64,000 nt of DNA from the NCBI RefSeq assembly GCF_036279695.1, contig NZ_DASUIQ010000065.1, forward strand, positions 52,601 to 116,600, given 5' to 3'. The notes beneath the pieces were generated by a model that was not told where the DNA came from, did not search any database, and worked only from the letters and a program-made list of their open reading frames with translations. A program made the position numbers and the translations under genes. This document shows, piece after piece, positions 14,356 through 55,605 of the stretch (position 1 is its first letter; every line of letters begins with the position of its first letter). The stretch comes from Sulfuricurvum sp. GTDB taxonomy: Bacteria > Campylobacterota > Campylobacteria > Campylobacterales > Sulfurimonadaceae.

Positions 14356-14356
14356 T

Positions 14357-14653: not shown

Positions 14654-14663
14654 AGGTTTACCT

Positions 14664-15026
14664 TTAAGAGATTAAGAGATAGGATTCGAGTGCGACGACG
14701 GCAATGGCATACTCTCCGTCATGGGTGATTGAAACCGATAGTGAGGTGACCCCAAATCGCTGTTTGACCTCTTCGGAGAGGGAAATGATGGGTGAGCCTT
14801 TGGGGGTTTTGGAGAGGATGATGTCGTGAAAGCCGCAATCGCTTCCGATACCGCACCCCAGTGCTTTTGCACATGCCTCTTTTGCCGCCCAAAAGCCTGC
14901 CGCATTACGATGGTTTTTGATTAAAGATATTTCATTTTCGGATAAAAATTTTTGAAGTCCCCGATCGCCGAAACGCTCGATTAGACGTTTCATGCGGTCA
15001 GTTTTGATGAGGTCGATGCCGATCAT
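14664..15026 (-). CDS. acpS: holo-[acyl-carrier-protein] synthase
   Basis: MIGIDLI start, 120 aa, typical AcpS layout. 4 nt overlap with fliL. Confidence 0.88.
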   Translation of the reverse strand: MIGIDLIKTDRMKRLIERFGDRGLQKFLSENEISLIKNHRNAAGFWAAKEACAKALGCGIGSDCGFHDIILSKTPKGSPIISLSEEVKQRFGVTSLSVSITHDGEYAIAVVALESYLLIS

Positions 15027-15601: not shown

Positions 15602-15715
15602 CCATAGCTCCTAGGATAAAGTTAATTCTTTATTGTAGCGAGAAACTTATGAAATTTGCCACGGTACCTAATGGAAATTTTGGTAAACTTAGCAGATGAA
15701 ATGAAGGGAATCTTT

Positions 15716-16510: not shown

Positions 16511-16521
16511 AACGGGGAAAA

Positions 16522-36273: not shown

Positions 36274-37746
36274 TTAGCGATATTTCTCTTCGATCCCGAC
36301 AAGGGTTCGATAGAGTTTCTCCCCTTCGTCATTTTCCCCTTTGGCATACACCTTCTTCCCATCATGCGCAAAAAATGTCAGTTCCAACGGAGCATTGGTA
36401 TCTCCTGAGGCGAGGACGGCGATGTCATCGGGTGAGATCGTAAAGCTCGTCAATACTTTTTTCGTCACAAAATCGATCTGCGGATAGGCAACATAGACGA
36501 GTTCAGAACAGACGATGGTTTCGGTGGTGTTGACGTTGAAATCAAAATCGTACTTTTTACCGTAATTGCTCAGTGCCAGATCCAATGAACCGCGTATCTC
36601 ATCGGAGGATAAATGGCTCGGACGGAGTGTCGCAACGTCATCGATATTCATAAAATGCTCGACGCTGTTAAGTACGACCCCCTCGCGAAGCGCTTCGAGG
36701 ATCACTTTGCCCTCTTTGATCTCATCGAGATGGCGTTTAATAAACGGTTCGTTCAATGCTCCCAAATCGCGAAGCTGTTCATACGTTCCGATGTAGAGCG
36801 CCGCATGACCGAAATGCCCCGGAATCGTTTTGTCGGTCAAAGCAAATGGGGTCTTTTCCAGCAATACGTCTCCGGGTTTGAGCTGTGCCGAAAAATCAGC
36901 GAGAAATGCTTTGTCCTCACGCAGTTTTCCGCTGCGCCATCGTACCATCCCCATCGTGTTGCCTAGCACTTTTGAAAAGGTGAATTTGAGTTTTTCGACG
37001 GTTGAGAACGGCAATTCAGCGGTACGGGAGACGAGTACGCTCACCTGATCGGCAATCTCTTTGAACGCGTTATCTCCCCCTAACGTCGCACGCATCGGTG
37101 AGTGGTCGATGTAATCGTATAGATAGCGGATCGAAGGGTCACCTTGAGCGATATAGAGAGCAATCGTCTTGCGGTTATCCTCGAAAAAGCGGATGGCATC
37201 GAGCATCGTGGAGCGATAGGTGAGGGTATTGGCTCTCATCAGTGAGTCTTTGTAAAAGTTTTCATCCACTCCGTACTCGGGATAGGCTTCATTGAGTTTA
37301 GCGCGGATTTCGCTTTTGTCATGCATATGATCTTGCATAAATTGGGCATTGTCATAGAGAGTCAGCGCCGCCGCCATTGAAATCACGATTGATTCGATAC
37401 GGTCGCGATCCCCTAACGATTCATCGGTGCGGTAAAGCGCATTACGGTAGCGCAACGCATACGGAAATAAACTGGTTCGTACGGCATCGGCTTCACGGAT
37501 CGATTTGGCGATTCTCACCGACAGGGTCGATGGGAGTGCCCCTTTGTGCGAGCGAATTGAGCTTTCCGCTTCACTCATAAAAGGGGGGATCTTTTCCCGA
37601 AGATCGAGAGAACGGCGGATAAGGTCTTCTACCGCTATCGCGTCGTTTTGACGGGCGGTATTCACCAGCTGTGCCAAATCCGATTCGGCGGAGAGGAGGG
37701 TAAATGCGGCTAGGGTCAGTGAGATTATGAGGGTTCTATAATTCAT
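36274..37746 (-). CDS. secreted protein with C-terminal YiiX-type permuted papain/NlpC-P60 (LRAT-like) domain
   Basis: Signal peptide, about 300 aa helical N-domain, then His-before-Cys order (GHFGHAALYIG ... VCSELVYVAY). 11 nt overlap with lplT. Confidence 0.65.
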   Translation of the reverse strand: MNYRTLIISLTLAAFTLLSAESDLAQLVNTARQNDAIAVEDLIRRSLDLREKIPPFMSEAESSIRSHKGALPSTLSVRIAKSIREADAVRTSLFPYALRYRNALYRTDESLGDRDRIESIVISMAAALTLYDNAQFMQDHMHDKSEIRAKLNEAYPEYGVDENFYKDSLMRANTLTYRSTMLDAIRFFEDNRKTIALYIAQGDPSIRYLYDYIDHSPMRATLGGDNAFKEIADQVSVLVSRTAELPFSTVEKLKFTFSKVLGNTMGMVRWRSGKLREDKAFLADFSAQLKPGDVLLEKTPFALTDKTIPGHFGHAALYIGTYEQLRDLGALNEPFIKRHLDEIKEGKVILEALREGVVLNSVEHFMNIDDVATLRPSHLSSDEIRGSLDLALSNYGKKYDFDFNVNTTETIVCSELVYVAYPQIDFVTKKVLTSFTISPDDIAVLASGDTNAPLELTFFAHDGKKVYAKGENDEGEKLYRTLVGIEEKYR

Positions 37747-39010
37747 TTTTTGCCTTTGTGTGGATTAGTCGTGCAATGATTCCTGCAACGAGCAAAGTCG
37801 TAATGCCGACGAGGAGAAAAATATCGGGGATACTCCAACCATCTCCTAGAAGTAGTATCGTCACAACCGCACCTGAAACCATAAAAAGGGCATTGAGGAT
37901 ATTGTTGGCGGCGATGATGCGGGAGCGAGAATGGGCTTCGCTTCGCCCTTGCATCAGGGCATACAGCGGAACGCTATAAAGCCCGCCGAACACTCCGATG
38001 AGGGTTAGATCAAAGAGAATATGGAAAAACTGCGGGTTTGCGTATATATCTCCTGTCGTGGTGAAGTGTTGCGCGGCAAGGGCAAAATCGATCCCCGACA
38101 GCCCCATTCCGATAGCTCCGATAACAACCAGCGAGACGCGGAGGCTATGGTGGCTGAGCCGCTCACAGAGGATGGAACCCGCACCGATCCCGAGGGTAAA
38201 GAGGCTCAGCAGTATCGTCACCGTCGTCTCATCCCCCATCAACACCGATTGAACGAATGAGGGGAACTGAGAGAGGAGCAATGCCCCATAAAGCCAAAAC
38301 CATGAGATCGCCAAAATAGAAAGAAAAACCATCCGATTTTGGTACGCCAATCGGATAGCGTTGCGTGTTTGGGCAATGAGGTTGAGCGAAAACGGCATCT
38401 CAGGGCTCAGGGAGGGGGCGTTTGGGATATAGCGGCTGAGGGTGTATCCGATGATGGCGACCGCGATGGAGGCGATACCGGCAATCACTCCGCCGTTGGG
38501 GATTCCCGATAGTACCCCGCCGATGAGTGTCCCCAGTAAAATCGCGGCGAATGTCCCCGATTCGACGAGGGCGTTGGCGCTGACCAGCTCATTTTCCCCC
38601 ATGTGCTGAGGGATGATCGAGTATTTGATCGGACCGAACAGCGTCGAGTGCATCCCCATCCCGAACACGACGATCATAAGGGTGATAAACGAATGGGTCG
38701 CAAATCCCACCGTGGCGATCACCATCAAAAAGATCTCCCACACTTTGACGATACGTGCGAGACGCGCTTTATCAAACTTATCCGCCAACTCTCCCGCCAC
38801 TCCTGAGAAAAGGAAAAAGGGGAGGATAAAGACGGCTCCGATCAGCGGAGCGAGGAGGGCGGAGGAGATCGAAGTCCACTCGGCGGCTTGAAAGGTGAGG
38901 AGCACCGCAAGGGTATTTTTAAAGAGATTGTCGTTAAATGCCCCTAAAAACTGGGTTCCGAACAGCGGGGCAAAACGGTGTGTTTTGAGCAGATAAAGTG
39001 GACTGCTCAT
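37736..39010 (-). CDS. lplT: lysophospholipid transporter (MFS)
   Basis: 12-TM MFS with a LplT-like N-terminus (FGTQFLGAFNDNLFKN). 4 nt overlap with aas, as in the E. coli aas-lplT pair. Confidence 0.8.
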   Translation of the reverse strand: MSSPLYLLKTHRFAPLFGTQFLGAFNDNLFKNTLAVLLTFQAAEWTSISSALLAPLIGAVFILPFFLFSGVAGELADKFDKARLARIVKVWEIFLMVIATVGFATHSFITLMIVVFGMGMHSTLFGPIKYSIIPQHMGENELVSANALVESGTFAAILLGTLIGGVLSGIPNGGVIAGIASIAVAIIGYTLSRYIPNAPSLSPEMPFSLNLIAQTRNAIRLAYQNRMVFLSILAISWFWLYGALLLSQFPSFVQSVLMGDETTVTILLSLFTLGIGAGSILCERLSHHSLRVSLVVIGAIGMGLSGIDFALAAQHFTTTGDIYANPQFFHILFDLTLIGVFGGLYSVPLYALMQGRSEAHSRSRIIAANNILNALFMVSGAVVTILLLGDGWSIPDIFLLVGITTLLVAGIIARLIHTKAKNEL

Positions 39011-41136
39011 GCATCCGCCGCCATTGATTTGAGGGTGACGTAATCGGTTTTGCCTGTCCCCAAAACAGGGATGGCATCGACATAAACGATTTTGCGAGGA
39101 ACGGCGATTTCAGGGTATCCTCGCTCCCGTGCGGCTTGTTGGAGGGTATCGCGTTTTAGCTCTCTGTCGGTCGTAAAGAGGACGAGGGCTTCCCCTCTGG
39201 ACTCATCATTTTGGGATGATGTCGCATGAAAATGGCTCGGTGAAGCGGTGAGGGCGAGTTTCTCAACCGATTCGAGGGAGATCATCTCCCCCGCGATCTT
39301 GGCGAACCGTTTGACCCGTCCCGCTATGCGAACAAATCCACGCTCATCGATCGTGACGATGTCTCCCGTATCGTACCACCCCTCTCCCGCATCAGAGGTC
39401 GGTTTTTCCAAAAATCCGGGACGCTCAGCACGTAGATAGCCGCTCATAACGTTCGGTCCTTTGACGTGCAAGATTCCCCCCTCATCGATCCCCGGAACAC
39501 TAATGAGTTTTGCCTCAATCCCCGGCAAAATCTGTCCTACGGTGCCGCTTCGGTACGCCATCGGGGTATTGACGGCGATAACGGGAGCCGTTTCGGTCGC
39601 CCCGTACCCTTCGAAAATCCGTATCCCGAATTTCTCGAACCACAGCTCTTTGACACTCTCCGAGAGCTTTTCAGCTCCGGCTACGACGTAGCGGAGGCGA
39701 TAAAAATCGTAGGGATGGGCATGGGCGGCATAATGGTTCAAAAAGGTGCTGGTTCCAAAGAGGATCGTGCACGATCGGTCATACGCGATCTCTGGGATAA
39801 CGCGGTAATGCAGTGGGGATGGGTACAAAAAGAGGGGAATCCCTCCCATAATCGGCAACAATGTCCCCGCTGTCAAACCGAAGGAGTGGAAAATCGGCAG
39901 GGCATTGAGCATTTTGTCTTCCGTCGAGAAATCGACGATGGAACGCAGTTGAGCGATATTTGCCATAATCGCATCGTGCGAGAGGACAACCCCTTTGGGT
40001 TTCCCTTCCGACCCTGAGGTAAAGAGGATCACCGCCGTATCTTCAGGAGCTACTTTGTGCATCACTGCACGCGGGAACCATCGTGCGAATCCCATGAGCC
40101 AGAGTTTGTCGATGAGACGCATTTGAGGACGGAGGTCTTCGAGATAGAGGATCGTTACACCGTGTAACCCCTCCAGTTTGGGTTCGAGTTTCCCTTGTGT
40201 TACAAAAGCACGGGAGGTGATGATCGTGTTGATCTGTGCGGCGGTGCAGGCATTTTGTAATCCATCGCTTCCGGCGGTAAAGTTGAGCATTGCGGGAGTT
40301 CGTCCAAACGCATTGAGTCCGAGAATAAGCCCCAATGTCGGAACCGCTGTGGGCATCAATACCCCAACCGCTTCTTTGGGAGCGGTATGAGGGGAGAGGA
40401 GTCTCCCCAATCCCAATGCCATCGTTAGCACCTGTCGGTAGGTGTACTCGATTTGTTTGGTGTCTTCGGCAATGCGGTGCGAATAACCGTAATCTTCCGC
40501 CGCATCGACGAATGCTCCGAAAAGGGTATTTGGGGTTCGCGATTCGAAGATACACTGTTGCAACAGTGTACGCATCGCTTCGCCCGATTTGGTACGTTTT
40601 TCATGAGCACTTCCCCCCTCAGAGATACGCAGACGGGTCGGGGTGCAATAGGTGAGGGTGATTTGCGGAAACCACCGTTTCGGATGTTCCGTGTGCATCC
40701 GTGAGAGGGTACTGAATGTCGCCCCCTCGATAATCACGGGATGGATCGTCGCCTCCGTTTTGACCGTGACGAACGCCGACCCCTCATAAATCTTCATCAA
40801 ACTTCCCGTCGTCGTGATCCGCCCCTCAGGGAAAATGACGACAGGACGACCGCTTTCGACGAGACGGATGATCTGTTTGATCGCCATCGGATTGGAGGGA
40901 TCGATGGCGAGGTATTCGCTCAGCGATAAAAATGCTCTTACCAGCGGGCGTTTGGCGATTTCGGTATTGACCACGAAAACCGGTTTGATCGGAAGTACCA
41001 ACCCCAAAATCAGCCCGTCTAAAAACGATTGATGGTTGGCTATGATAATCGTATGGTTTTCTTCGCGTTGAAACTCTCCGACTACTTTTATCCGAAATAA
41101 AAGACGGACGATTACATATAAAATCGATTTAATCAT
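39007..41136 (-). CDS. aas: bifunctional 2-acylglycerophosphoethanolamine acyltransferase / acyl-ACP synthetase
   Basis: N-terminal PlsC-type HX4D (ANHQSFLDG, FPEGR) and a C-terminal adenylate-forming domain (FTSGSEGKPKGV). Confidence 0.88.
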   Translation of the reverse strand: MIKSILYVIVRLLFRIKVVGEFQREENHTIIIANHQSFLDGLILGLVLPIKPVFVVNTEIAKRPLVRAFLSLSEYLAIDPSNPMAIKQIIRLVESGRPVVIFPEGRITTTGSLMKIYEGSAFVTVKTEATIHPVIIEGATFSTLSRMHTEHPKRWFPQITLTYCTPTRLRISEGGSAHEKRTKSGEAMRTLLQQCIFESRTPNTLFGAFVDAAEDYGYSHRIAEDTKQIEYTYRQVLTMALGLGRLLSPHTAPKEAVGVLMPTAVPTLGLILGLNAFGRTPAMLNFTAGSDGLQNACTAAQINTIITSRAFVTQGKLEPKLEGLHGVTILYLEDLRPQMRLIDKLWLMGFARWFPRAVMHKVAPEDTAVILFTSGSEGKPKGVVLSHDAIMANIAQLRSIVDFSTEDKMLNALPIFHSFGLTAGTLLPIMGGIPLFLYPSPLHYRVIPEIAYDRSCTILFGTSTFLNHYAAHAHPYDFYRLRYVVAGAEKLSESVKELWFEKFGIRIFEGYGATETAPVIAVNTPMAYRSGTVGQILPGIEAKLISVPGIDEGGILHVKGPNVMSGYLRAERPGFLEKPTSDAGEGWYDTGDIVTIDERGFVRIAGRVKRFAKIAGEMISLESVEKLALTASPSHFHATSSQNDESRGEALVLFTTDRELKRDTLQQAARERGYPEIAVPRKIVYVDAIPVLGTGKTDYVTLKSMAADA

Positions 41137-41447
41137 TGAGAATTTCCTTGTAAATAGTTGAGTACATTGCCAAACGTTTGCTCCAGTAGAGGTTTATTGA
41201 TCCAAAACCACACCTCTTTCCCTTTTTTCTCGCTCAAGAGCACTTCGGCCTGACGGAGGATTTTGAGATGATGCGATACGGTGGTGCGTGCTAGTGTCGA
41301 GGCATCGGCGATTTGCCCCGCTGTGAGCCGCTCATCCGGCTCGAACAGCATCAGCATCCGCTGACGGTGTTCATCCCCCAACGCGGTAAAAATATCGGAC
41401 ATCGGTTTCCATTCGGGCGGAAGAGCATGGGTATAATTGGTTTTCAT
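41133..41447 (-). CDS. ArsR/SmtB-family HTH regulator (no metal-binding Cys motif seen)
   Basis: Winged-helix core GQIADASTLARTTVSHHLKILRQAEVL. No ELCVCDL-type cysteines. ATGA overlap with aas. Confidence 0.85.
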   Translation of the reverse strand: MKTNYTHALPPEWKPMSDIFTALGDEHRQRMLMLFEPDERLTAGQIADASTLARTTVSHHLKILRQAEVLLSEKKGKEVWFWINKPLLEQTFGNVLNYLQGNSQ

Positions 41448-41450
41448 CGT

Positions 41451-41481
41451 TATAATCCTAAAAACTTAAACATATAGATAT
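41451..41481 (-). promoter_or_regulatory. conserved leader/operator-like motif, copy 1 (upstream of arsR-family gene)
   Basis: The plus-strand string tataatcctaaaaacttaaacatatagatat is 27/31 identical to 45523-45553, at the same offset (+4) from a start codon. It contains the SD (TAGGA on the coding strand) and the inverted repeat CATAT-ag-ATATG. Confidence 0.5.
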
Positions 41482-41496
41482 GATAATAAATCTGAG

Positions 41497-42828
41497 CTAA
41501 TATGAGACTGAATCACTCGCGCGAAGTGATTCTAAATGCGATTGATACAGACCCAGTGCCACATACACGTATTTCGATTTGACATAGGCACTACGGATAC
41601 TATTGAGCCGCTCTTCGATCTGCTCCATCGTGTGTCCACGGTACAACATCCACGCACCGATCGCCATAACACTGCGAGAGAGCCCTAGAGCGCAATGGAC
41701 ATAGACACCGCGCTCTTTTTTATCTTCGATCATCATAACGACGCGGTGCAGTGCCTCGGGAGAGGGGATCGTCAAATCCAAAAATGGTATTCTCGTCTGC
41801 TCCAGTGTAGAGCGGTTGATCTGATGTTCCAATGCCAGATTGATCGCGTGGTTGATCCCAAGGGATCGGATAAGGTCGTATTCGTGGGATGATGGGTGAC
41901 GTCCGAAATAGATGCGTTCCTCCACGTGGCTCATTAACGGCAATTTTTGTTTGTACCATCGCCATGAGAGGTTTGTCCCGATAAAATAGGGGGCAAACAC
42001 GATCCATTGCCATAATGAAGCCTTTGACTCTTCCCCTGCAATGAGATGATTGAGTCCAAACGCATAGACGATAGCTACCGCTGCCATCGAGAGAAACAGC
42101 CACAGTGCGATGAGGGAGTGATATGCGAACGCTGCGACGAGAAACAAAACCGCCGCACCCAAATAATAAAGCCCCACTTTGAGACTGCGCGGAGTGGTGA
42201 ACTTCTCCAGAAGCCGGTTATTCGGACGGATTAGGGCGATAGCGAGTGCCCCCATGAGTGCCCCCGTCGGGAGATCGATAAAATGGTGCTGATACACCAG
42301 CAGTGTGGAGAGGGCGATGAGCCAAAGCCACAGAGCAACGGCGTATTTTAGAAAAACGTTTTTCAAATGAGCGCGCATCGACATCCACAGCACGATGGCA
42401 AAACTGATGTGCAACGAGGGGAGCTGATTGTAAGGCAGATCGGCACTGAGAACCCCAAAGAGCCATTGATACTCATCGCTTTTGGGTTTTTCAAATCCGA
42501 ATTGGAGCGGAAAAAGGGTAAAGATGAGGACTGATAAAGCAACGATAAAGAGCACCCGCAACGCAAGGATACGAAGCTCCAAACGGCTCTGCGGAAGCAA
42601 AAATGCGATACAAAACATCACATCCGAGGACATATAGGGGATGATGAATGAGGGGACGAACGGAATGTGCCGCTCCCACTCCATAAAAATCGAGGGGTGG
42701 GGGGTGAGCGAAGCGTACTGATTCGCCGCACCGTAGAGGATAAAAAAGAGCGCTCCCATAAAAAGTACCCATACAAATCGCTCTTTGAGGGTGGCAGAGG
42801 CATCTAGGGCAGGATCAAACGGATACAT
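41497..42828 (-). CDS. ynbD: membrane PAP2_C (sphingomyelin/IPC-synthase-like) + dual-specificity phosphatase fusion (YnbD-like)
   Basis: Polytopic N-domain with PSLHISFA and YQHHFIDLPTG. C-domain CX5R P-loop VHCALGLSRS. Architecture and size (443 aa) match my recollection of E. coli YnbD. Confidence 0.65.
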   Translation of the reverse strand: MYPFDPALDASATLKERFVWVLFMGALFFILYGAANQYASLTPHPSIFMEWERHIPFVPSFIIPYMSSDVMFCIAFLLPQSRLELRILALRVLFIVALSVLIFTLFPLQFGFEKPKSDEYQWLFGVLSADLPYNQLPSLHISFAIVLWMSMRAHLKNVFLKYAVALWLWLIALSTLLVYQHHFIDLPTGALMGALAIALIRPNNRLLEKFTTPRSLKVGLYYLGAAVLFLVAAFAYHSLIALWLFLSMAAVAIVYAFGLNHLIAGEESKASLWQWIVFAPYFIGTNLSWRWYKQKLPLMSHVEERIYFGRHPSSHEYDLIRSLGINHAINLALEHQINRSTLEQTRIPFLDLTIPSPEALHRVVMMIEDKKERGVYVHCALGLSRSVMAIGAWMLYRGHTMEQIEERLNSIRSAYVKSKYVYVALGLYQSHLESLRASDSVSY

Positions 42829-42830
42829 GG

Positions 42831-44534
42831 TTATCTACGTCGCGCCGATGAGACGGTGAAAATACCCCAATCATCGATCCGCATCCCCTCTTTATCAAAC
42901 CCGTAGGAGCCAAAGAGGGTATCGAGTTCATACTGGCTTCGGCGGCGCATTATCCATTGCGTTTGCTGATGGTTCCCAAGCACATGGGCGATTTGTTCCA
43001 ACTGCGGATGCCACGGCTGACCCGTATAGACCAAATACCCATTCGGTGCGATCATCGAAGTGATCCCCTCAATGGCATTTTGGATCAGTGCATTTTGTTC
43101 AAACAGCTCAAATACCCCTGAGACGACAACGATATTCGGCTCGTAGGTATTTCGGTCGTAATTGGTTTTATCAAACGCATCGGCTTGCTCGTAACGGATA
43201 TTAGAGAGACCCCGCTCTTTTGCCAATGCGCGCCCTTGCTCGACGTTTTGTTCCTGATAATCGCGCACCAGTACCTCAATGTCGGGGTACTCCTCTGCGA
43301 GTTCGATGAGATAGCGGGCGGGTCCTCCGGCAATATCGAGAATTTTTACATTTTTCCCCTCGCCGCGCAGCTGATCGATTTTTTCGCGGATAGTAATGAT
43401 AGCGTTGACTTTACGCTGACGAATCCCTCTCCATCCGATGCTCTCGAGATAGTTTTTATCGGAGAGTTTCCCTAGCAGACCCACACCGCTTGGGGTATTT
43501 TTGTAGACATAATCGAGTGTAACCCCCGAATCGAACCCGTATTTCAGCCCGATTTTCATCCCATCACTCATCCACCCCAAGGTGTTTAGCATAAAACGCT
43601 GAACCCCAAAAGAGAACTTTTGACACGTGGTGATCTCCCCTCGTGCGATTTTATCTTTTTCATTTTGGGTCAACGCGATGAGATGCTCACTCTTATCGGT
43701 TTTAGGGGTGTTGAAACACTCCTCCATAAACACTCCGATGGCATCGATCGCTTTGTGCGCTTCCGCTTCATAGAGGACACCGTGATAAAACCCTTTCAAC
43801 TCCACGAACCGTTTTAACGGGGAACTGAGACGCTCATAAAATACCTTTTGAACGCGACTGTCCACGACATAATCCGATGTTGCCGAGAGTACCAATGTCG
43901 GGGTGACGATGTGGCTCGCATCCTCCACAATCCGTTTTGCGGTATCGAGGAGTGTCACGAGTTGTCGTGCGGGGATGTTGGGAGTGATGAGCGGATCGGT
44001 GTTGTATCGCTCCTGCTCTATCGTATTATGGGTCAAAAACTTCGCTTTGACGTAGGATTTGATGTTCATGCGGGGATTAAACCGTATCATCAAATCGAGT
44101 GAGGGTTTGGCGAGAGGGATATAGAGTTTGATGACAAACGCCGGAGCGACCAGTGCCATCCCCGCGATACGCGGAGCATAATCGTGCACCCACGTCGAAG
44201 CGACGACCCCCGCGACCGAGTTGGCGACGACGAAAATATCTTCGGCGCTTTTTCCCTCTTTGGCACAGACAAAGCGGACAAACGCCTCCAAATCGCGTAC
44301 CAGATTCATAAACTCATAGGTCGCCTCGGCTCTAGTGTATCCATGCCCTCGATTGTCATACGAGAACACTTTGTACCCCTCGAAAATCGCGTTACGGGCG
44401 ATGGGATCGAGTCGCTCTGAGTGCTCATGTCCGCGATGGAGGAGCAGCACGATTTTGCCGTTAGGATTTTGCGGCGACCATTCACGATAAAAAAGCTCTG
44501 AGCCATCGAAGCTTGCGAAATTTCCGGTTGTCAT
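42831..44534 (-). CDS. ynbC: alpha/beta-hydrolase (lysophospholipase-like) + class I SAM methyltransferase fusion (YnbC-like)
   Basis: LLLHRGHEHSERL and nucleophile elbow VANSVAG in the N-half. SAM motif I ILDIAGGPARY in the C-half. 567 aa. Confidence 0.65.
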   Translation of the reverse strand: MTTGNFASFDGSELFYREWSPQNPNGKIVLLLHRGHEHSERLDPIARNAIFEGYKVFSYDNRGHGYTRAEATYEFMNLVRDLEAFVRFVCAKEGKSAEDIFVVANSVAGVVASTWVHDYAPRIAGMALVAPAFVIKLYIPLAKPSLDLMIRFNPRMNIKSYVKAKFLTHNTIEQERYNTDPLITPNIPARQLVTLLDTAKRIVEDASHIVTPTLVLSATSDYVVDSRVQKVFYERLSSPLKRFVELKGFYHGVLYEAEAHKAIDAIGVFMEECFNTPKTDKSEHLIALTQNEKDKIARGEITTCQKFSFGVQRFMLNTLGWMSDGMKIGLKYGFDSGVTLDYVYKNTPSGVGLLGKLSDKNYLESIGWRGIRQRKVNAIITIREKIDQLRGEGKNVKILDIAGGPARYLIELAEEYPDIEVLVRDYQEQNVEQGRALAKERGLSNIRYEQADAFDKTNYDRNTYEPNIVVVSGVFELFEQNALIQNAIEGITSMIAPNGYLVYTGQPWHPQLEQIAHVLGNHQQTQWIMRRRSQYELDTLFGSYGFDKEGMRIDDWGIFTVSSARRR

Positions 44535-44535
44535 C

Positions 44536-45519
44536 TTATTCTCCTAATAGTTTGGTGTAGTTGGTATAGATGGGACTCTCTGCCGGGAAGTACTCTAAAA
44601 TCGCCTTGGCATAGCGATCAAATGGGTTCGCTTCGCGTGAGAGAGAAAAGCGTTTGCGATAGGGGAGATCGTAGCTGTTGAGCATCGTGCTAAAGGGTAC
44701 GGGGAAATCGGTGCCGAAGAGGAGCTTGTGATGGATGTCGCTCTGTCTGCTCAGATGGCGCAATACTTTTGCTCTCACGGGGGTGAGGAGGGCGCTTATG
44801 TCAGCATAGAGATTATCATGTTCTCTAAGCATTTCGAGAAGGATAAAGTACTCGTCGTTAAAATGTTTCGGATTTTTGGAGAGGGCTTTGAATATTTGGC
44901 GTGGTTCATAGGTGAGTGCCATATGTGCGCAGATCACCTGAACCCCCGCTTCGAGTGGATGACTCAGCATATCGATACTCTCACACGATTTAAAAGAGTG
45001 AACACTGCTCTCACTCCCCACATGGACGATCAGCGGCAGATCGCGCTGTGCGAGTTTGTCGAAATAGGGACGATAACGCGCTTCGCGGGTATCGACCCCC
45101 CAGTAGTTTTGCAAAAACTTTGCCCCCGCAAATCCCGCATCGGCGTAGCGGTCGATGAGATCGAGCGCATCGGGGCGTTTGGGATTGATGGAGAAAAAGG
45201 GGATGATGACATCCTCGTTCCCTCGGTACAACGCCGCTACGTCTTCGTTGGTCGCACACACGGTGATGTCTTTGTGAAGAATTTCTCCCTCTTCATCAAC
45301 CCGTGCATCGACACCGAAGAGGACGATTTTCTCAACGTGTCGTGAACCTCTGACCGATTCGACCAGTGCGCGGGTGTATTCGCCGTAGGGATCGCGGACG
45401 AGTGCTTTGGGGTTCATTCCGAACTTTTTGGCAAAAAAACGCAATGCCAATTTGTCGTAAAAACGATCAAACGCTACATCACTGCTGAGAAGGTGGGTAT
45501 GGATATCAATGGTTTTCAT
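44536..45519 (-). CDS. amidohydrolase-2 / TIM-barrel metal-dependent hydrolase
   Basis: IDIHTHL metal motif at the N-terminus, 327 aa. 1 nt gap to the ynbC-like gene. Confidence 0.7.
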   Translation of the reverse strand: MKTIDIHTHLLSSDVAFDRFYDKLALRFFAKKFGMNPKALVRDPYGEYTRALVESVRGSRHVEKIVLFGVDARVDEEGEILHKDITVCATNEDVAALYRGNEDVIIPFFSINPKRPDALDLIDRYADAGFAGAKFLQNYWGVDTREARYRPYFDKLAQRDLPLIVHVGSESSVHSFKSCESIDMLSHPLEAGVQVICAHMALTYEPRQIFKALSKNPKHFNDEYFILLEMLREHDNLYADISALLTPVRAKVLRHLSRQSDIHHKLLFGTDFPVPFSTMLNSYDLPYRKRFSLSREANPFDRYAKAILEYFPAESPIYTNYTKLLGE

Positions 45520-45522
45520 AAC

Positions 45523-45553
45523 TATATTCCTAAAAACTTAGACATATCGAAAT
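45523..45553 (-). promoter_or_regulatory. conserved leader/operator-like motif, copy 2 (upstream of amidohydrolase)
   Basis: tatattcctaaaaacttagacatatcgaaat is 27/31 identical to 41451-41481. A partial extra copy, ttcctaaaa, follows at 45566-45574. Confidence 0.5.
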
Positions 45554-45586
45554 ATTAAATGTGTTTTCCTAAAATTATCCTGAAAT

Positions 45587-46207
45587 TTATACATCCTTCT
45601 CCCCCGCCTTTTTAATCACCTCTTCCAACCGCTCCGTAAACGCTTGAGTATCTTCTTCGCCGATCATCATCGGCTCATTGATATGAACATCGATGATAAA
45701 GGGGACGAGTAGCGCTTCCCCTTTGGGGAGCACTTTTCCCGCGCCGCCGAGATAGATGGGGACAACGCTGATATGGGGAGCCATTTTTGCCAAATGGGCG
45801 ACTCCTGATTTGAATTTACTCATCTGCTCCGCTTCGCCGCGACTCCCCTCGGGGAAGAGGATGATGCTGTTCCCCGCTTCGAGGGCTTGGCGCACCGATT
45901 CGAGGGGATGCGTGTGCGATCTCTCTACTTTTCGACTTAGGGGGATAATCCCGATGAACTGGGTCGAGAACCACGCGATGAGGCGGTTTTTCATAAAATA
46001 GTCCGCCGCCGCGACGGGGCGGATACGGTGGATTTTGCGCAGGGGAAAGAGGCTCATGAGTACCAGCGTATCGAGATGGCTGTTATGGTTAGCGACGATG
46101 ATGCAGGGTTTGTCGTGACTTAGGTGTTCGCGCCCCCGCACATGCACTCCGAAGACCAGCAATACCGTAGGACGGACGATGAGGGCGAAAAAGAGCCATT
46201 TTAGCAT
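45587..46207 (-). CDS. PlsC-type lysophospholipid acyltransferase
   Basis: HX4D block ANHNSHLDT and FPEGSRG block, 206 aa. Confidence 0.8.
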   Translation of the reverse strand: MLKWLFFALIVRPTVLLVFGVHVRGREHLSHDKPCIIVANHNSHLDTLVLMSLFPLRKIHRIRPVAAADYFMKNRLIAWFSTQFIGIIPLSRKVERSHTHPLESVRQALEAGNSIILFPEGSRGEAEQMSKFKSGVAHLAKMAPHISVVPIYLGGAGKVLPKGEALLVPFIIDVHINEPMMIGEEDTQAFTERLEEVIKKAGEKDV

Positions 46208-46216
46208 CGTGTTATC

Positions 46217-47155
46217 CTAATAGTAGAGATAGTAGGTGAAATGGAAAAAAAGCGGTGCGGTATAGGTGAGACTATCGACACGATCAAGTATCCCCCCATG
46301 CCCAGGCAGCAGATGCCCCGAATCTTTTACCCCGATGTCCCGTTTGACCATCGAAATGACGACATCGCCGACGAACCCCGCGCCGCTGATGAGCATCCCC
46401 GCCGCGAGCGCTTGAAGCGTCGTAAAAGGGGTGAGAAACGAAAATGCCACCGCGAGAGCACTGAGGGTGATAAATGCACCCACGAACCCCTCGATCGTTT
46501 TGTTGGGGCTTACTTTCGGGACGATTTTATGTTTACCCAGAGCCTTGCCCCAGAGATATTGTAATACATCGTTGAGTTCGGTGAGGACGACGAGATAGAG
46601 CACCAACTCTTTTCCCCCGACATCATGCCCCGCCACAGCAGGGAGAGTCATCATATAGGCGAGGTGGCTCAGACCGAAGACAAACATCATCAGCCCCCAC
46701 TGCACGCGGCTCGTGTTCTCTAAAAATCCCTGCGTCTCCCCGATGAGTACCTGACGAAACGGGAGGAGCAAAAAGAGGTAGACGGGTATCCAAATGATAA
46801 ACATCCCATACCACTGCGCCCCCGCGAACCAGTACTGAAACACGATGGAGAGGTAGGCGTAAAAGATGATACGACGATCGGTGCGACGGGTGGGGATAAG
46901 GGTGAAATACTCTTTGAGGGCGAGATAGCTGATGAGAGCGAAAAAGAACATCGCTACGGTCGTGTTGAGCATCGCCCCGAGTATAAATGCGCCGATAATG
47001 ATCCACCACGAATAGACGCGGTCTTTCAACTCTTGGGACGTTTTGGTGCGAAAGATCACCGATACGATCAACGTGGCAAACGCCAATATCCCTAAAATAA
47101 TCAGCAAAACAATCCCGCTTTTACCCGAAAAGAGTGTGGTGATTGTCTCTATCAT
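46217..47155 (-). CDS. ynbB: phosphatidate cytidylyltransferase paralogue (YnbB-like)
   Basis: CdsA signature SMVKRDIGVKDSGHLLPGHGGILDRVDS. The ATG at 47155 forms an ATGA overlap with the upstream stop (track start 47194 is less likely). Confidence 0.75.
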   Translation of the reverse strand: MIETITTLFSGKSGIVLLIILGILAFATLIVSVIFRTKTSQELKDRVYSWWIIIGAFILGAMLNTTVAMFFFALISYLALKEYFTLIPTRRTDRRIIFYAYLSIVFQYWFAGAQWYGMFIIWIPVYLFLLLPFRQVLIGETQGFLENTSRVQWGLMMFVFGLSHLAYMMTLPAVAGHDVGGKELVLYLVVLTELNDVLQYLWGKALGKHKIVPKVSPNKTIEGFVGAFITLSALAVAFSFLTPFTTLQALAAGMLISGAGFVGDVVISMVKRDIGVKDSGHLLPGHGGILDRVDSLTYTAPLFFHFTYYLYY

Positions 47156-47751
47156 GATTTTAACCCCCGCACAGAGCGTCGAAGCACCGTCCATCCCCCC
47201 ATCAGCGTGGCGATGATCATAATGGCATCAAACCACCCATCAGGCAAAACTCCCAGCCCAAGAGCCAGCGAGAGGGCGCCGATCACAAACGCTCGATCGC
47301 TTTTCCCCATCGGTCCATCATAGCGTCTCACTCCCCCGATGAGTGCTCCCAACACCCCCGCCATTTCTGTGAGGATAGCCATAATAACAAATAACACAAC
47401 CCAAAGTGCCGAGACACCGCCGATCAGAGCAAAAGGGAGATAAAGCGCCGCATCCGAGAGGACATCGCTCATTTCATTCAGCATCGCCCCTGCGTCGCTT
47501 TTCATATCGTGCTCTTTGGCGAGCATCCCATCGATCGCATTAAGCGCCATCCGCACAAACATCACCGCAGGGATAGATAGCAGTGTCCAGAGCGCACCGT
47601 GGGTGAGTGCAACAGCACCCCCCGCGATAAAAGAGAGAGCGAGTGCCGCATAGGTGATTTGATTCGGAGTTGCCCCTAAGCGCGCCAAATTTTGGACTGT
47701 AGGACGAAGAAGATTTTGGAAAGCGGGTTTGAGATCGTAGATGGTCGCCAT
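47152..47751 (-). CDS. ynbA: CDP-alcohol phosphatidyltransferase family protein (YnbA-like), variant motif
   Basis: NAIDGMLAKEHDMKSDAGAMLNEMSD aligns to Dx2DGx2ARx8Gx3Dx3D, with Asn at the first and third Asp positions. 199 aa polytopic protein. Confidence 0.7.
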   Translation of the reverse strand: MATIYDLKPAFQNLLRPTVQNLARLGATPNQITYAALALSFIAGGAVALTHGALWTLLSIPAVMFVRMALNAIDGMLAKEHDMKSDAGAMLNEMSDVLSDAALYLPFALIGGVSALWVVLFVIMAILTEMAGVLGALIGGVRRYDGPMGKSDRAFVIGALSLALGLGVLPDGWFDAIMIIATLMGGWTVLRRSVRGLKS

Positions 47752-47816: not shown

Positions 47817-49082
47817 TTAACACTCCGAACTAATGACTTGGTTCCGTCCGTTTGCTTTGGCTTGGTAGAGGGCACGGTCGGCACGTAAGAGAAGATCATC
47901 CATTTTTTGATCGCTTGGGAGGATAGAGGCGACACCGACACTGACAGTAAAAAAGATGGGTTCCTTTTCGGAATAGATGGCTATTTTGGAGGTGCTTTGG
48001 ACGATTCGTTCCGCCAATAGGATACTCTCCTCTAAAGATGTTTCAAACAGCAATGCCGTAAACTCTTCCCCTCCCATCCGTCCGAAAACATCACTTTCAC
48101 GGAGATGCTTTTTACAGTTATCGGCGAATTGTTTGAGTGCCTGATCTCCCACTTGATGCCCGTATGTATCGTTGATCGCCTTAAAATTATCAAGATCGAA
48201 TGACAAAACACAGAGCTCTTTTTGATTTCGTTTTGCCATAACGAAATATTGATCTCCGACATCAAAAAAACTTCGTCGGTTTCGAATGTTGGTGAGGTAA
48301 TCGGTTGTAGCGATATGGGTTAACCCTATGTTGAGTTGTTCGAGTTCTAATGTCCGTTCTTTCACCTCTTGCTCCAGTTGAGCGGCATAGTCGTGTTCGG
48401 CATTTAAAATGATATTTTTTTGTTGATTAAGTTTTTCAATCATCAAATTAAACTTTTTTTGGAGGAGATCAAGCTCGCTGCTTTTAGGAACATTTACACT
48501 GATTTTATGCTGATCGAGATTGTCAAATTCAATGTCGCCGATTTGATTGGTAAGATCGGTAAGGGGTTCAACGAGATTTTTTTGAAATGCCCAAATAAAC
48601 AAAAATAACAATATCACGCTTTTGATCATGGCATTGAGGATTATCAGAATTACCCCTGTTTTGACAATGTCGATAACACTGTTTTGATCGGAGGAGATGA
48701 TCGCTTTTGCTATCACTATTTTTTGCATATTATGTACTTTAAATATGTTAAATTCATGAGAAAAACGGTTGGTTATGTTATGTGCTTGATGATGAGTGAT
48801 AATATTTCCGGAAGGGTCCAAAAGGATGACCTCTTTTACAAATGACAGTTTGGAAATGGAATCGCTCAAACTCTCTATTTGATCCACATCCATATCCCAA
48901 ATAGCATTTTGGAGTGAATTTATATAAGTATTTTCGAGGGAGACTAGATCTTTTTGGACATTGTTTTTGGTATCGTAATATTCAATCATAATCTGAGTAA
49001 TCGTCATGATCAAGGTGATGACAAAATAGATCAAAAATATTTTTTTGAGTAGCTTTACTGATATGGAATTTTTAATAAACAT
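47817..49082 (-). CDS. membrane sensor diguanylate cyclase
   Basis: Two TM helices flank an about 110 aa extracytoplasmic segment. These are followed by a coiled coil and a GGDEF domain (RMGGEEFTAL). The start abuts the stop of the SBP gene. Confidence 0.85.
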   Translation of the reverse strand: MFIKNSISVKLLKKIFLIYFVITLIMTITQIMIEYYDTKNNVQKDLVSLENTYINSLQNAIWDMDVDQIESLSDSISKLSFVKEVILLDPSGNIITHHQAHNITNRFSHEFNIFKVHNMQKIVIAKAIISSDQNSVIDIVKTGVILIILNAMIKSVILLFLFIWAFQKNLVEPLTDLTNQIGDIEFDNLDQHKISVNVPKSSELDLLQKKFNLMIEKLNQQKNIILNAEHDYAAQLEQEVKERTLELEQLNIGLTHIATTDYLTNIRNRRSFFDVGDQYFVMAKRNQKELCVLSFDLDNFKAINDTYGHQVGDQALKQFADNCKKHLRESDVFGRMGGEEFTALLFETSLEESILLAERIVQSTSKIAIYSEKEPIFFTVSVGVASILPSDQKMDDLLLRADRALYQAKANGRNQVISSEC

Positions 49083-50315
49083 CTATTCGGACTTTTTTAA
49101 TATAGTGTTGAGTCTTTTTTCTGCTTTAATCATGACATCATCCACCGAATCATGACTCATCAAAAAATCACTCAAAATCGTAATCATGGCATCATTGCAC
49201 TCTTTGAGTTTGAGATTTTTAGGATAGAGTGCCATATCATGTGCCGATTTAACGTAAACTTTTCTAAAAGGGAGTTTTTTGAACTCTTCTGTTTTTAAAA
49301 CGTTTAGATTGGCGGGAACCTGACCTGAGATCGCCCAGTCATAGGAGTTTTCTGAAATCCATTTGATAAATTCGGCTGAGGCTTTTTGTTTGGACAAATC
49401 ATTGGATTTTAGGATGACAAAAGTATGTGAATCTCCGAAATTGGCACTCTTATCAAAAAGTTTCGGAAACTCAACGACACCAAAATCAAGCTCTTTATTT
49501 TGTTGAAAATTCCACGTCGTCCAAACCCCTGTAATCATTGTTGCTGCTTTGTTAAATTTAAAGAGGTTGTAGCCTTTTTCATCGTGTATCTCTTGATTCC
49601 AAACTTTGGCTTCTCTCATTTTGTAAAAAAAATCAAACGCTTTTTTCCCCGCCGGATTGTTAATGGCTGCTTTGTTGTTGAGTATATACCCTCCGTTTTC
49701 TTGTTGAGAATAGAGACTGTACCAAATCCACCAGTTAAGTACATTGTCGTTTGGGGTAGAGAATGCCACGACATCAGGCGGCAGTGATTTTTGAAGTTTT
49801 TGTAAGAATTCTACGAATCCCTCAATGCCGCTTCTTATGATTGGATTACCGTTTTTATCCAAAAGATGAGCCTGTGCCAAATATTTTTTGTTGAAATACA
49901 TAACTTGTGGATGCATATCCAGAGGGAGAGCATAATGTTTTTGTTCAAATCGGATCGCTTGAATCAAATGGGGGGAAAAATTCTTCCACGGTATCTCATA
50001 AGAATTTAAATCGGCTAAGGCATTTTGATGCACATACCACGGGAGTAGTGATGCGTGAACGATAGCGATATCAGGAGCATTTTTGGTGTGAATATTTTTA
50101 TTTAGAGTGGGGTAATACTCTGCCCATTTTATAATTTTCATCTTAACATTGATGTGTTTATGGGAGGCATTAAACTTATCCACCATCAGTTGCATCGGTC
50201 TGGCATCTCCGCCACTAAAGAGAACCCAATATTTCAGATTAGTGAGTGGTGGTTCATTACCCATCAATCCAACAATGAACAATATTTGAGCGAAAAATAG
50301 TGTAAAAAGCTTCAT
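49083..50315 (-). CDS. orphan periplasmic solute-binding protein (SBP family 1-like)
   Basis: Signal peptide and 410 aa with sugar/polyamine SBP-like sequence. No ABC permease or ATPase genes are adjacent. Confidence 0.7.
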   Translation of the reverse strand: MKLFTLFFAQILFIVGLMGNEPPLTNLKYWVLFSGGDARPMQLMVDKFNASHKHINVKMKIIKWAEYYPTLNKNIHTKNAPDIAIVHASLLPWYVHQNALADLNSYEIPWKNFSPHLIQAIRFEQKHYALPLDMHPQVMYFNKKYLAQAHLLDKNGNPIIRSGIEGFVEFLQKLQKSLPPDVVAFSTPNDNVLNWWIWYSLYSQQENGGYILNNKAAINNPAGKKAFDFFYKMREAKVWNQEIHDEKGYNLFKFNKAATMITGVWTTWNFQQNKELDFGVVEFPKLFDKSANFGDSHTFVILKSNDLSKQKASAEFIKWISENSYDWAISGQVPANLNVLKTEEFKKLPFRKVYVKSAHDMALYPKNLKLKECNDAMITILSDFLMSHDSVDDVMIKAEKRLNTILKKSE

Positions 50316-54826: not shown

Positions 54827-54859
54827 CATTTACGGCTATGTCTAAGCTGAAAAATATTA
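54827..54859. repeat. 33 bp direct repeat, left copy
   Basis: catttacggctatgtctaagctgaaaaatatta is identical to 55537-55569. Confidence 0.95.
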
Positions 54860-54928
54860 TTTTATCCTCATTCTAAACGAGGAAATAAAATATGCTATAC
54901 TAGTGATAATAAAATATGGGATTTTCAG

Positions 54929-55156
54929 TTGCCGACGTTATTGAATCTAAATGGTTTTAAATTCTTTTTTTATGCAAATGAACATGAACCTAAACATATT
55001 CATGTGATGAAAAATGAAGGGTTTGCAAAGGTTGAATTGGAAAGTTTAACAGTAGTGCAAAACTATTTAAAAGCCAAAGATTTAAAAGTAGCACTTGAAA
55101 TTATCAAAGAAAATAAAAATGAATTTGAAAGGATGTGGGATGAGTGGTTTAATTAA
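54929..55156 (+). CDS. DUF4160-family small protein
   Basis: MPT...GFKFFFYANEHEPKHIHV is the DUF4160 signature. TTG start. Confidence 0.75.
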   Translation: MPTLLNLNGFKFFFYANEHEPKHIHVMKNEGFAKVELESLTVVQNYLKAKDLKVALEIIKENKNEFERMWDEWFN

Positions 55157-55382
55157 AGGGAAAGAAGTCCATTTCGATGATACTTATTTGCATGTCAAGT
55201 TAGAAGATGAGAGAATTATATCTACACCTATCGAATGGTACAAACCACTTAAAAAAGCGACCATATCTCAACTAAAAAACTATAAATTAATTTGCATGAA
55301 TACAGGTATCGAGTGGGAAGAGTTGGATTATCACCTCAATATCGAAAGTATGTTGGAAGTTACCGATAGTAAAGTTGCCTAA
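55140..55382 (+). CDS. DUF2442-family small protein
   Basis: ISTPIEWYKPL...IEWEELDYHLNIESML is DUF2442-like. The ATG at 55140 overlaps the DUF4160 gene end by 17 nt. Confidence 0.7.
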   Translation: MSGLIKGKEVHFDDTYLHVKLEDERIISTPIEWYKPLKKATISQLKNYKLICMNTGIEWEELDYHLNIESMLEVTDSKVA

Positions 55383-55460
55383 ACAAAATTGTAAAAGTGA
55401 AGATTGAATACCTGACCCTGTTTTTCTGTTTTTATTAGACTTCTTGCATAATCTACTTTT

Positions 55461-55523
55461 CCGTTCGTGGTGAGCTTGTCGAACCATGAACAAAACACCC
55501 TTCGACAGGCTCATGGCGAACGG
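55461..55523. repeat. imperfect palindromic (REP/MITE-like) element
   Basis: Arms ccgttcgtggtgagcttgtcgaa and ttcgacaggctcatggcgaacgg pair at 19 of 23 positions, with a 17 nt loop. Translated, the arms give PFVVSLSNHE and FDRLMANG. Confidence 0.6.
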
Positions 55524-55536
55524 TGTTATATTTTCT

Positions 55537-55569
55537 CATTTACGGCTATGTCTAAGCTGAAAAATATTA
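55537..55569. repeat. 33 bp direct repeat, right copy
   Basis: Identical to 54827-54859. Confidence 0.95.
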
Positions 55570-55605
55570 ACAATGTTTCTCTATGAGTTTCGTAACAGCT
55601 AATTG

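Follow-up and report, generated by a model that had tools for sequence, protein, structure and literature searches.

The window, a stretch of 64,000 nucleotides (nt) of Sulfuricurvum sp. DNA (contig NZ_DASUIQ010000065.1), holds at positions 36274-47751 a run of ten minus-strand open reading frames (ORFs), and we consider, with moderate confidence, that this locus is made up of two membrane-lipid modules, each conserved independently of the other, and that in Sulfuricurvum the two are interleaved and probably co-regulated. Module 1 corresponds to the ynbABCD genes of Escherichia coli together with a plsC-like gene, and module 2 associates an amidohydrolase, an ArsR-like regulator, Aas, an LplT-type transporter and a secreted YiiX-like hydrolase. 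The initial annotation, made from the sequence alone, had seen here eleven genes encoding one self-contained pathway. Eleven was a miscount, its own list holding ten genes, and the single pathway does not stand either, each module being found without the other. The ten genes are the following, in the direction of transcription, with their lengths in amino acids (aa) and the letters that we use for them in gene orders:

47152-47751, minus strand: ynbA-like CDP-alcohol phosphatidyltransferase (A), 199 aa; Pfam CDP-OH_P_transf, 26.9 bits (cut-off 22)
46217-47155, minus strand: ynbB-like CdsA paralogue (B), 312 aa; Pfam CTP_transf_1, 223 bits; its ATG at 47155 overlaps the ynbA stop
45587-46207, minus strand: PlsC/Aas-type lysolipid acyltransferase (P), 206 aa; Pfam Acyltransferase, 89 bits
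44536-45519, minus strand: Amidohydro_2 metal-dependent hydrolase (H), 327 aa; Pfam PF04909, 59.6 bits
42831-44534, minus strand: ynbC-like fusion (C), 567 aa; Hydrolase_4, 180 bits, and Methyltransf_20, 338 bits
41497-42828, minus strand: ynbD-like fusion (D), 443 aa; PAP2, 28 bits, and C-terminal CX5R DSPc, 45 bits
41133-41447, minus strand: ArsR/SmtB-family winged-helix regulator (R), 104 aa; HTH_5/ArsR; NCBIfam HTH_metalloreg NF033788, 61.7 bits (cut-off 55)
39007-41136, minus strand: aas (S), bifunctional acyl-ACP synthetase / lysophospholipid (2-acyl-GPE) acyltransferase, 709 aa; Acyltransferase and AMP-binding
37736-39010, minus strand: LplT-type MFS lysophospholipid transporter (T), 424 aa; Pfam MFS_1
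36274-37746, minus strand: secreted YiiX/YebB-like permuted NlpC/P60 cysteine hydrolase (X), 490 aa; Peptidase_C92, 66.8 bits (cut-off 27), residues 288-442

This layout was reproduced from the ORF table and the junction sequences, and all the overlaps and gaps described initially were recovered. Stop and start codons overlap as ATGA three times (47152-47155, 41133-41136 and 39007-39010), the lplT and yiiX-like ORFs overlap by 11 nt (37736-37746), and the small gaps measure 1 nt (44535), 2 nt (42829-42830) and 9 nt (46208-46216). There are only two true intergenic gaps in the cluster, of 67 nt (45520-45586) and 49 nt (41448-41496), and the stop of the convergent argB gene lies 3 nt away from the yiiX-like stop. 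The domain calls were likewise confirmed by Pfam and NCBIfam, save that the PAP2 part of YnbD is PAP2/PAP2_3, PAP2_C being absent at E <= 0.01. The proposed correspondence with YnbA-D was examined by direct BLASTP against the E. coli K-12 proteins (b1408-b1411, from NC_000913), and the alignments are full length, with identities of 46 % for YnbA (191 aa), 48 % for YnbB, 41 % for YnbC and 33 % for YnbD (E 5e-47 to 4e-156). By this comparison, the four window proteins are full-length orthologues of E. coli YnbA, B, C and D, and the E. coli gene order is kept, B and C being separated by two additional genes.

The modularity of the locus can be read from gene order. The ten window proteins were mapped by tblastn on 80 loci of YnbC relatives, as well as on loci fetched around individual proteins; YnbC has more than 4000 relatives at E <= 1e-20, the nearest of which are found in Sulfuricurvum metagenome-assembled genomes (MAGs; 96 %) and then in Sulfurospirillum cavolei (75 %). 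The five-gene order A-B-P-C-D is that of Sulfurovum, Thiofilum, Arcobacter, Iodobacter and Desulfuromonas, while Chromobacterium has A-B-P-C with no ynbD match, Psychromonas has the same five genes in another order, and the E. coli cluster is devoid of the plsC-like gene. Since A-B-P-C-D is so widespread across phyla, the plsC-like gene is part of a common five-gene cluster of which E. coli carries a reduced form, and it does not make the window set an "expanded" one, as had been proposed. An acyl-chain enzyme looks like a component of the ancestral ynb cluster. In most other taxa, this ynb core is found without any module-2 gene. The comparison of neighbourhoods that the initial annotation had called for shows that the linkage of ynb to aas/lplT recurs in Campylobacterota, whereas the ynb loci outside this phylum have no aas or lplT within 10 kb. 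Among the linked loci and their closest relatives, the following orders were found:

Window and L002: A-B-P-H-C-D-R-S-T-X
L085: A-B-P-H-C-D-R-S, the contig ending in aas
L090: A-B-P-H-C-D-R-S-T, with no yiiX
Sulfurospirillum cavolei: H, a 200-bp gap, then A-B-P-C-D-R-S-T
Sulfurimonas: A-B-P-C-D-MerR-(LplT::Aas fusion)-C45-type hydrolase, the merR start overlapping the ynbD stop
Sulfurimonadaceae MAG L009: T-S-A-B-P-C-D-H
L003: A-B-P-H-C-D-X, with no R-S-T
L095: A-B-P-H-R-S-T-X, with no C-D

At least five arrangements of the linked modules are thus represented, spread over Sulfuricurvum, Sulfurospirillum, Sulfurimonas and other Sulfurimonadaceae. Two details of these loci can be recorded here. 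In Sulfurimonas, where lplT and aas are fused, the next gene encodes a PF03417 (AAT/C45) protein (L083, 17191-18264), at the place where the window has the YiiX-like C92 protein. In L090, the ynbD homologue gives two partial matches (11178-12673; query 5-358 and 343-443) with no gene called, which is possibly a frameshift or a pseudogene.

Module 2 is also found in its own right. In L092, from another member of the Campylobacterota, the order is H-ArsR-aas-lplT with no ynb gene within 9 kb, and in L091, from Sulfurimonas, the amidohydrolase gene directly follows the fusion in MerR-LplT::Aas-H, with no ynb genes nearby. In Methylotenera (L093), which has no ynb genes either, we found ArsR-Aas-M28 peptidase-YiiX-Amidohydro_2-x-DUF2145-Hydrolase_4-DUF2339-DUF3999-MFS, with identities to the window proteins of 54 % for ArsR, 53 % for Aas, 47 % for YiiX, 28 % for the amidohydrolase and 51 % for LplT (over the N-terminal part, at the end of the locus). 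As such sets occur without ynb, module 2 (H, R, S, T and X) is, judging from its gene content, a conserved unit whose theme is lysophospholipid handling, and both the amidohydrolase and the YiiX-like protein are to be grouped with aas/lplT, not with ynb. Downstream of the L091 module (9994-17097) lies a run of genes for a FabH-like KAS III, an NAD-dependent reductase/epimerase, a metallo-beta-lactamase-fold protein, an ATP-grasp protein and a Rieske protein, which suggests that a further pathway has been recruited to this aas module.

These gene orders bear directly on the first alternative, according to which all ten genes form one co-transcribed pathway that turns phosphatidate into a lipid with a special head group, with the amidohydrolase as one of its steps and aas-lplT as a built-in recycling arm. 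The very tight spacing, with its three ATGA overlaps and no convincing terminators, speaks for it, as do the position of the amidohydrolase gene between plsC and ynbC in Sulfuricurvum and L090, and the recurrence of the aas/lplT linkage in several genera. But the amidohydrolase travels with the regulator, aas and lplT without ynb (L092, L091) and occupies three different positions relative to ynb, the ynb clusters of most taxa are without any module-2 gene, and there are strains without ynbCD or without arsR-aas-lplT. We therefore consider a single pathway unlikely, and the amidohydrolase, which had been proposed as a step of the ynb route, is better placed in module 2.

The conserved sequences found within the cluster also argue against this alternative, as they point to separate promoters. 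Both true gaps have about 40 nt in common, with ATATGTYTAAGWWWTTAGGAWTATA as the core, and a 25-nt element can be delimited in each of them:

45523-45547, minus strand: copy 1, ATATGTCTAAGTTTTTAGGAATATA, within the 67-nt gap, just upstream of the amidohydrolase start
41451-41475, minus strand: copy 2, ATATGTTTAAGTTTTTAGGATTATA, within the 49-nt gap, just upstream of arsR

A pattern search found exactly two occurrences of the 25-nt pattern in the 64-kb window, where 0 were expected, and each half of it has exact matches at the same two sites only. In every Sulfuricurvum locus this element stands upstream of the amidohydrolase gene, the position being the same in L002, L003, L085, L086 and L095, and it also precedes the relocated amidohydrolase gene of Sulfurospirillum (L082, L088) and the amidohydrolase gene of L092. 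Where ynbC-ynbD stand between H and arsR (window, L002, L085), there is a second copy upstream of arsR, while in L095, in which arsR comes directly after the amidohydrolase gene, there is a single copy, the upstream one. In Sulfurospirillum and L092, the core 9-mer is found inverted upstream of arsR (CTTAAACAT). In L002, moreover, a 1.5-kb insertion (3517-5016, 33 % GC) lies in the plsC-H gap, upstream of the element, so that H and the genes behind it would be independent of the ynbA promoter, and an internal promoter upstream of H is likely. The L002 insertion carries an opposite-strand PIN-like ORF and a putative membrane ORF, and the neighbouring L002 proteins are otherwise 95-98 % identical.

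The shared element and the two gaps suggest three transcription units, namely ynbA-ynbB-plsC, H-ynbC-ynbD and arsR-aas-lplT-yiiX. The last two are probably under the same, ArsR-mediated control, with the element as a candidate operator. An Rfam scan of 35000-56500 retrieved no family, so a shared leader at these sites would be no known riboswitch or other RNA. Further operator half-sites that had seemed present near 54.8-55.5 kb were discarded, as they fall within a 31-bp direct repeat (TTTACGGCTATGTCTAAGCTGAAAAATATTA) that is unrelated to the element. The copies of this repeat bracket a cassette of some 700 bp holding two small ORFs (window 54830-55570), between a DsbH-like and a DsbD gene, and the whole resembles a small insertion that has duplicated its target.

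We now turn to the proteins of module 1. CdsA-type enzymes make CDP-diacylglycerol, and CDP-alcohol phosphatidyltransferases transfer the phosphatidyl group. The canonical PF01066 signature of the latter, D-x2-D-G-x2-A-R-x8-G-x3-D-x3-D, with its four Asp, is not matched by the window YnbA, which has N-x2-D-G-x2-A-K-x8-G-x3-N-x3-D: in the alignment with AF2299 and the Mycobacterium tuberculosis phosphatidylinositol-phosphate (PIP) synthase, Asn (N68, N91) replaces Asp1 and Asp3, and Lys replaces Arg. The two Asn are found in all 79 of the ynbC-linked YnbA homologues, the one from E. coli included (L001, 3622-4227), and the Arg is changed to Lys, Asn or Ser in 30 of them. Because of this invariance, we regard the YnbA-type proteins, on their sequences, as a divergent clade of CDP-alcohol phosphatidyltransferases, whose acceptor, metal use or chemistry may be unlike those of the classical enzymes. 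The best named NCBIfam matches of YnbA, the PIP and archaetidylinositol-phosphate synthases, are both under cut-off, these equivalogs not being reached (68 vs 180 bits and 41 vs 170 bits). YnbB passes Pfam CTP_transf_1 but has only 104.6 bits against the NCBIfam CdsA equivalog, for a cut-off of 385, and by this score it is a paralogue and not CdsA proper. The PlsC-like protein has the HX4D motif (HNSHLD) and the FPEGSR motif, and in NCBIfam it comes closest to the acyltransferase domain of LplT-Aas fusions; since it has 76 bits against TIGR00530, for a cut-off of 103, it is not the housekeeping PlsC.

The N-terminal half of YnbC matches the human and M. tuberculosis monoglyceride lipases (E 1e-16), and its residues S106, D221 and H251, which are invariant, are the predicted catalytic triad. 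In YnbD, the motifs PSLH, HHFID and HCALGLSRS can be found. Its PAP2-type domain is without the conserved KX6RP motif, like members of the sphingomyelin/inositol phosphorylceramide (IPC) synthase type, and the matches of YnbD in the structure database include DUSP23 and PTPMT1, a phosphatidylglycerophosphate phosphatase. The topology of YnbD derived from hydropathy is too crude to be used. The YnbD homologue of Chryseobacterium scores for PAP2/PAP2_3 only (AUR1/IPC-synthase-like family), and not for DSPc. The order at its locus (L021, 5301-11701) is ynbA-ynbB-patatin-like phospholipase-SDR-ynbD-ynbC, upstream of which a CTP synthase gene points the other way, and other Bacteroidota loci (L015-L057) have a similar ynbB-ynbD spacing of about 2 kb.

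As for module 2, the presence of aas and lplT, which the initial annotation had announced, is borne out. Aas passes the NCBIfam equivalog NF005959 (951.5 bits vs 886, residues 1-708). The MFS protein remains under the E. coli LplT equivalog NF008397 (112 bits, cut-off 297) and has 423 bits against the MFS half of LplT-Aas fusions (PRK06814), and its LplT function is deduced from these fusion partners and from its coupling to aas. The regulator, which also resembles SdpR in NCBIfam, has no cysteine at all in its sequence, so it is not predicted to be a thiolate metal sensor. Across the family alignment of the amidohydrolase, D5, H7, H9, H166, H199 and D271 never vary, which in our reading is the metal-ligand pattern of the superfamily, apparently intact. 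Its AlphaFold2 (AF2) model (pLDDT 89.5) is a TIM barrel, for which Foldseek finds PF04909-type structures (best E 1e-8) but generic barrels only, and no NCBIfam model nor PDB sequence matches this protein. Its close homologues (66-96 % identity) are common, and every named match in the top 120 is from Campylobacterota. The YiiX-like protein starts with a signal-peptide-like N-terminus (MNYRTLIISLTLAAFTLLSA/ES), and H311, H314 and C413 are invariant in 30 homologues, the His preceding the Cys. It has a conserved all-alpha N-terminal domain of 250 aa; its sequence is without a PDB match, and its whole AF2 model (pLDDT 74) finds only non-significant helical repeats. Full-length homologues of it are found in Sulfuricurvum and in Methylophilaceae, at about 50 % identity for the latter.

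The gene content, the orthology, the modular distribution, the linkage pattern and the conserved element are thereby shown, and from these assignments a sequence of reactions can be proposed, in which the enzymatic steps, like the pairing of regulator and operator and the functional coupling, are predictions. The initial annotation had proposed a head group that may be methylated and dephosphorylated. The PlsC-like enzyme would acylate a lyso-precursor to phosphatidate, which YnbB would turn into CDP-diacylglycerol, and YnbA, with its Asn/Asp/Asn/Asp site, would then move the phosphatidyl group onto an acceptor, probably a phosphorylated one. The CX5R domain of YnbD, which has PTPMT1 among its structural-database matches, would take off a phosphate, and its PAP2-type domain would dephosphorylate or transfer the head group, while YnbC would deacylate through its monoglyceride-lipase-type domain and methylate the product. 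Module 2 would be a regulated unit for the recycling of lysophospholipids and fatty acids: lysolipids generated by the periplasmic YiiX-like enzyme and/or by other, possibly foreign, phospholipases would be flipped inward by LplT and re-acylated by Aas with a fatty acid that it activates itself. The repeated but non-identical linkage, along with the position of ynbC-ynbD inside the putative ArsR regulon of Sulfuricurvum, suggests a functional coupling, in which the lysolipids and fatty acids handled by module 2 would be either substrates or products of the ynb pathway. One could go as far as to propose that the Asn-type YnbA and the CdsA paralogue build an unconventional phospholipid, possibly pyrophosphate-linked or methylated, from lysolipids re-acylated by LplT/Aas, and that the Cys-less ArsR-like repressor, acting at the 25-nt element, switches both arms on upon a lipid signal. 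We put this elaborate version forward tentatively, and with more doubt than belief.

Several observations weigh against the composite reading, and particularly against its regulatory and coupling parts. The 25-nt element takes in the Shine-Dalgarno sequence and shows a weak dyad only, so that, instead of an operator, it may be a common leader or the scar of a duplication; L003 keeps it, yet has no arsR on its short contig, and the scans for consensus promoters and terminators gave results at chance level. The nearest PDB folds of the amidohydrolase are ACMSD/LigW-type barrels, that is, aromatic decarboxylases or hydrolases (TM 0.5-0.58). Besides, aas/lplT was absent within 10 kb of ynb from every non-Campylobacterota locus examined, Sulfurovaceae carry A-B-P-C-D alone, and the sister Sulfuricurvum strains L095 and L003 do without ynbCD and without arsR-aas-lplT, respectively. 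As there are strains and taxa without one or the other module, the coupling is at most facultative.

The same assignments can be arranged differently, as a response to membrane damage in which module 2 clears the lysophospholipids produced by foreign phospholipases and ynb resynthesises ordinary phospholipid from the salvaged lyso-precursors. E. coli ynbA is reportedly listed as a BglJ-RcsB target in a paper on Rcs envelope stress, which would suit such a response, and the ynb clusters always come with an acyl-chain enzyme, which is PlsC-like in Proteobacteria and Campylobacterota, and a patatin with an SDR in Chryseobacterium. In addition, the genes homologous to module 2 in Methylotenera lie among members of the Arc3A and Arc3B families, and Arc3 and Aas protect against a phospholipase toxin (PMC8926400). 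However, there are no Arc3 genes among the window proteins scanned, and the making of ordinary phospholipid would hardly call for a methyltransferase, for a CdsA paralogue of its own or for a YnbA with a divergent site. YnbB is unable to replace CdsA for bulk synthesis (PMC6362211). This makes the damage response quite unlikely in our view.

The flanks of the cluster have to be considered for a last alternative. The minus-strand run extends two genes upstream of ynbA:

47817-49082, minus strand: GGDEF diguanylate cyclase, 37-38 % GC
49083-50315, minus strand: SBP_bac_1 solute-binding protein (SBP), 37-38 % GC

Their GC content contrasts with the 51 % of the cluster and the ~45-51 % found around them, and the related strain L095 has neither of them at the corresponding site (thrC, cluster, argB). 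On these two grounds, they are probably a recent strain-specific insertion and lie outside the unit. The cluster itself, at 51 % GC against 45 % for the rest of the window, was considered as a horizontal acquisition, but the signal is weak, the adjoining housekeeping genes having 47-51 % GC, and the GGDEF/SBP pair alone is clearly foreign. Elsewhere, phage-type integrases or transposases and a reverse transcriptase are found beside ynb or aas modules, in Sulfurospirillum (L088, 4940-6163), Desulfuromonas (L087, 1-5966 and 13929-16818) and Sulfurimonas (L091, 3463-4554), which hints that these modules move horizontally.

Given such a plastic site, with the low-GC GGDEF/SBP genes in the window, the PIN-like insertion of L002, the integrase of Sulfurospirillum and the transposases of Desulfuromonas, and given that each module also occurs alone, the two modules might be functionally unrelated neighbours, joined by rearrangement in a variable region, and their adjacency would have been inherited in one Campylobacterota family. 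The linked loci differ, however, in their regulator (ArsR or MerR), in whether aas and lplT are split or fused, in the side of ynb on which these two lie and in the place of the amidohydrolase gene, of which there are three, and because of this variety the linkage is not the simple vertical inheritance of one accident. In Sulfuricurvum, ynbC-ynbD moreover lie between both copies of the module-2 element. We thus hold mere adjacency to be very unlikely, and retain two interleaved, probably co-regulated modules as the explanation of the locus.

What is already known has to be separated from what this locus adds. Every protein family involved has been described, as have ynbABCD and lplT-aas as units and the location of aas beside lysolipid-defence genes. 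Our literature search did not find a description of the association of ynb with aas-lplT, in keeping with what the initial annotation had supposed, nor of the five-member ArsR-aas-lplT-YiiX-amidohydrolase module, the shared 25-nt element and the invariant Asn/Asn YnbA variant. The main use of the finding is to give a testable physiological context to the ynb operon, an orphan that is nonetheless conserved from E. coli to Bacteroidota, Planctomycetota and Campylobacterota. Its variable but recurrent linkage to a regulated aas/lplT pair leads to the hypothesis that ynb chemistry consumes or produces lysolipids, and if the elaborate version put forward above is true, ynbABCD would gain its first physiological context, within a programme of membrane remodelling or repair. 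The lysophospholipid repair module, for its part, gains two conserved uncharacterised partners, the Amidohydro_2 enzyme and the secreted YiiX-like enzyme. The locus also offers handles, which are the candidate operator, the strains that are natural "knock-outs" (no ynbCD or no arsR-aas-lplT) and the invariant Asn/Asn variant of YnbA.

The closest known system is the ynb operon of E. coli, which has the same architectures in the same order and the same Asn-for-Asp changes in YnbA. The window adds the PlsC-like gene, as most non-enterobacterial clusters do, as well as the amidohydrolase gene before ynbC, and in contrast to the window, E. coli has no aas/lplT, regulator or YiiX-like gene adjoining ynb. 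As the initial annotation had stated, YnbB has been linked to MPIase, its overproduction raising the level of this glycolipid in E. coli (PMC6362211); our literature search found no function for YnbA, YnbC or YnbD, and no product or role for the operon.

A similar logic is found in the inositol-lipid cluster BT_1522-BT_1526 of Bacteroides, in which a CDP-alcohol phosphatidyltransferase gives a phosphorylated intermediate, upon which a phosphatase and an AUR1-homologous head-group transferase act (PMC9246714). The ynb cluster adds to this its own CdsA paralogue and the lipase-methyltransferase fusion, and no gene for an inositol-phosphate synthase turned up in the cluster or in those flanking ORFs that were scanned. 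The yeast IPC synthase AUR1 belongs to the PAP2 superfamily. We also considered whether the Bacteroides and Prevotella inositol-lipid pathways are the ynb cluster itself, and rejected this, as they use other gene sets.

For module 2, the reference is the LplT-Aas pair of E. coli, in which LplT flips and Aas re-acylates lysophospholipids. The window Aas passes the equivalog, and the LplT-type MFS protein is translationally coupled to it, although this transporter resembles E. coli LplT less than it does the MFS half of LplT-Aas fusions, and the order of the window, with aas before lplT, is the reverse of that in E. coli. Unlike the E. coli pair, the window genes are preceded by an ArsR-like regulator and accompanied by the amidohydrolase and the secreted YiiX-like enzyme. 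In many bacteria, aas, which together with LplT serves lysophospholipid repair, adjoins arc3 (PF10101/PF13163), and in Pseudomonas aeruginosa Arc3A and Arc3B prevent the build-up of lysophospholipids under phospholipase toxin attack (PMC8926400). The Methylotenera locus, the closest relative of module 2 outside Campylobacterota, holds DUF2339 (PF10101, Arc3A) and DUF3999 (PF13163, Arc3B), whereas neither family was found among the ten cluster proteins, nine flanking proteins and ten large window ORFs, and the described arc3 neighbourhoods are themselves without ynb genes.

Finally, the YiiX-like protein can be compared with the permuted NlpC/P60 enzymes that act on lipids. The crystal structure of YiiX holds a bound fatty acid (PMC3142127; also cited in PMC7387801), the LRAT/HRASLS enzymes and the toxin Tox-Act1 are phospholipases A or acyltransferases (PMC12994826), and LnsA takes part in the N-acylation of lipoproteins (PMC7387801). 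With YiiX, LRAT/HRASLS, LnsA and Tox-Act1, the window protein has in common the C92 arrangement with the His before the Cys, and it differs from them by its length of 490 aa and its additional all-alpha N-terminal domain. Since permuted NlpC/P60 enzymes produce lysolipids, which are the substrate of LplT/Aas, this literature fits well with the reading of module 2 as a unit for the handling of lysophospholipids.

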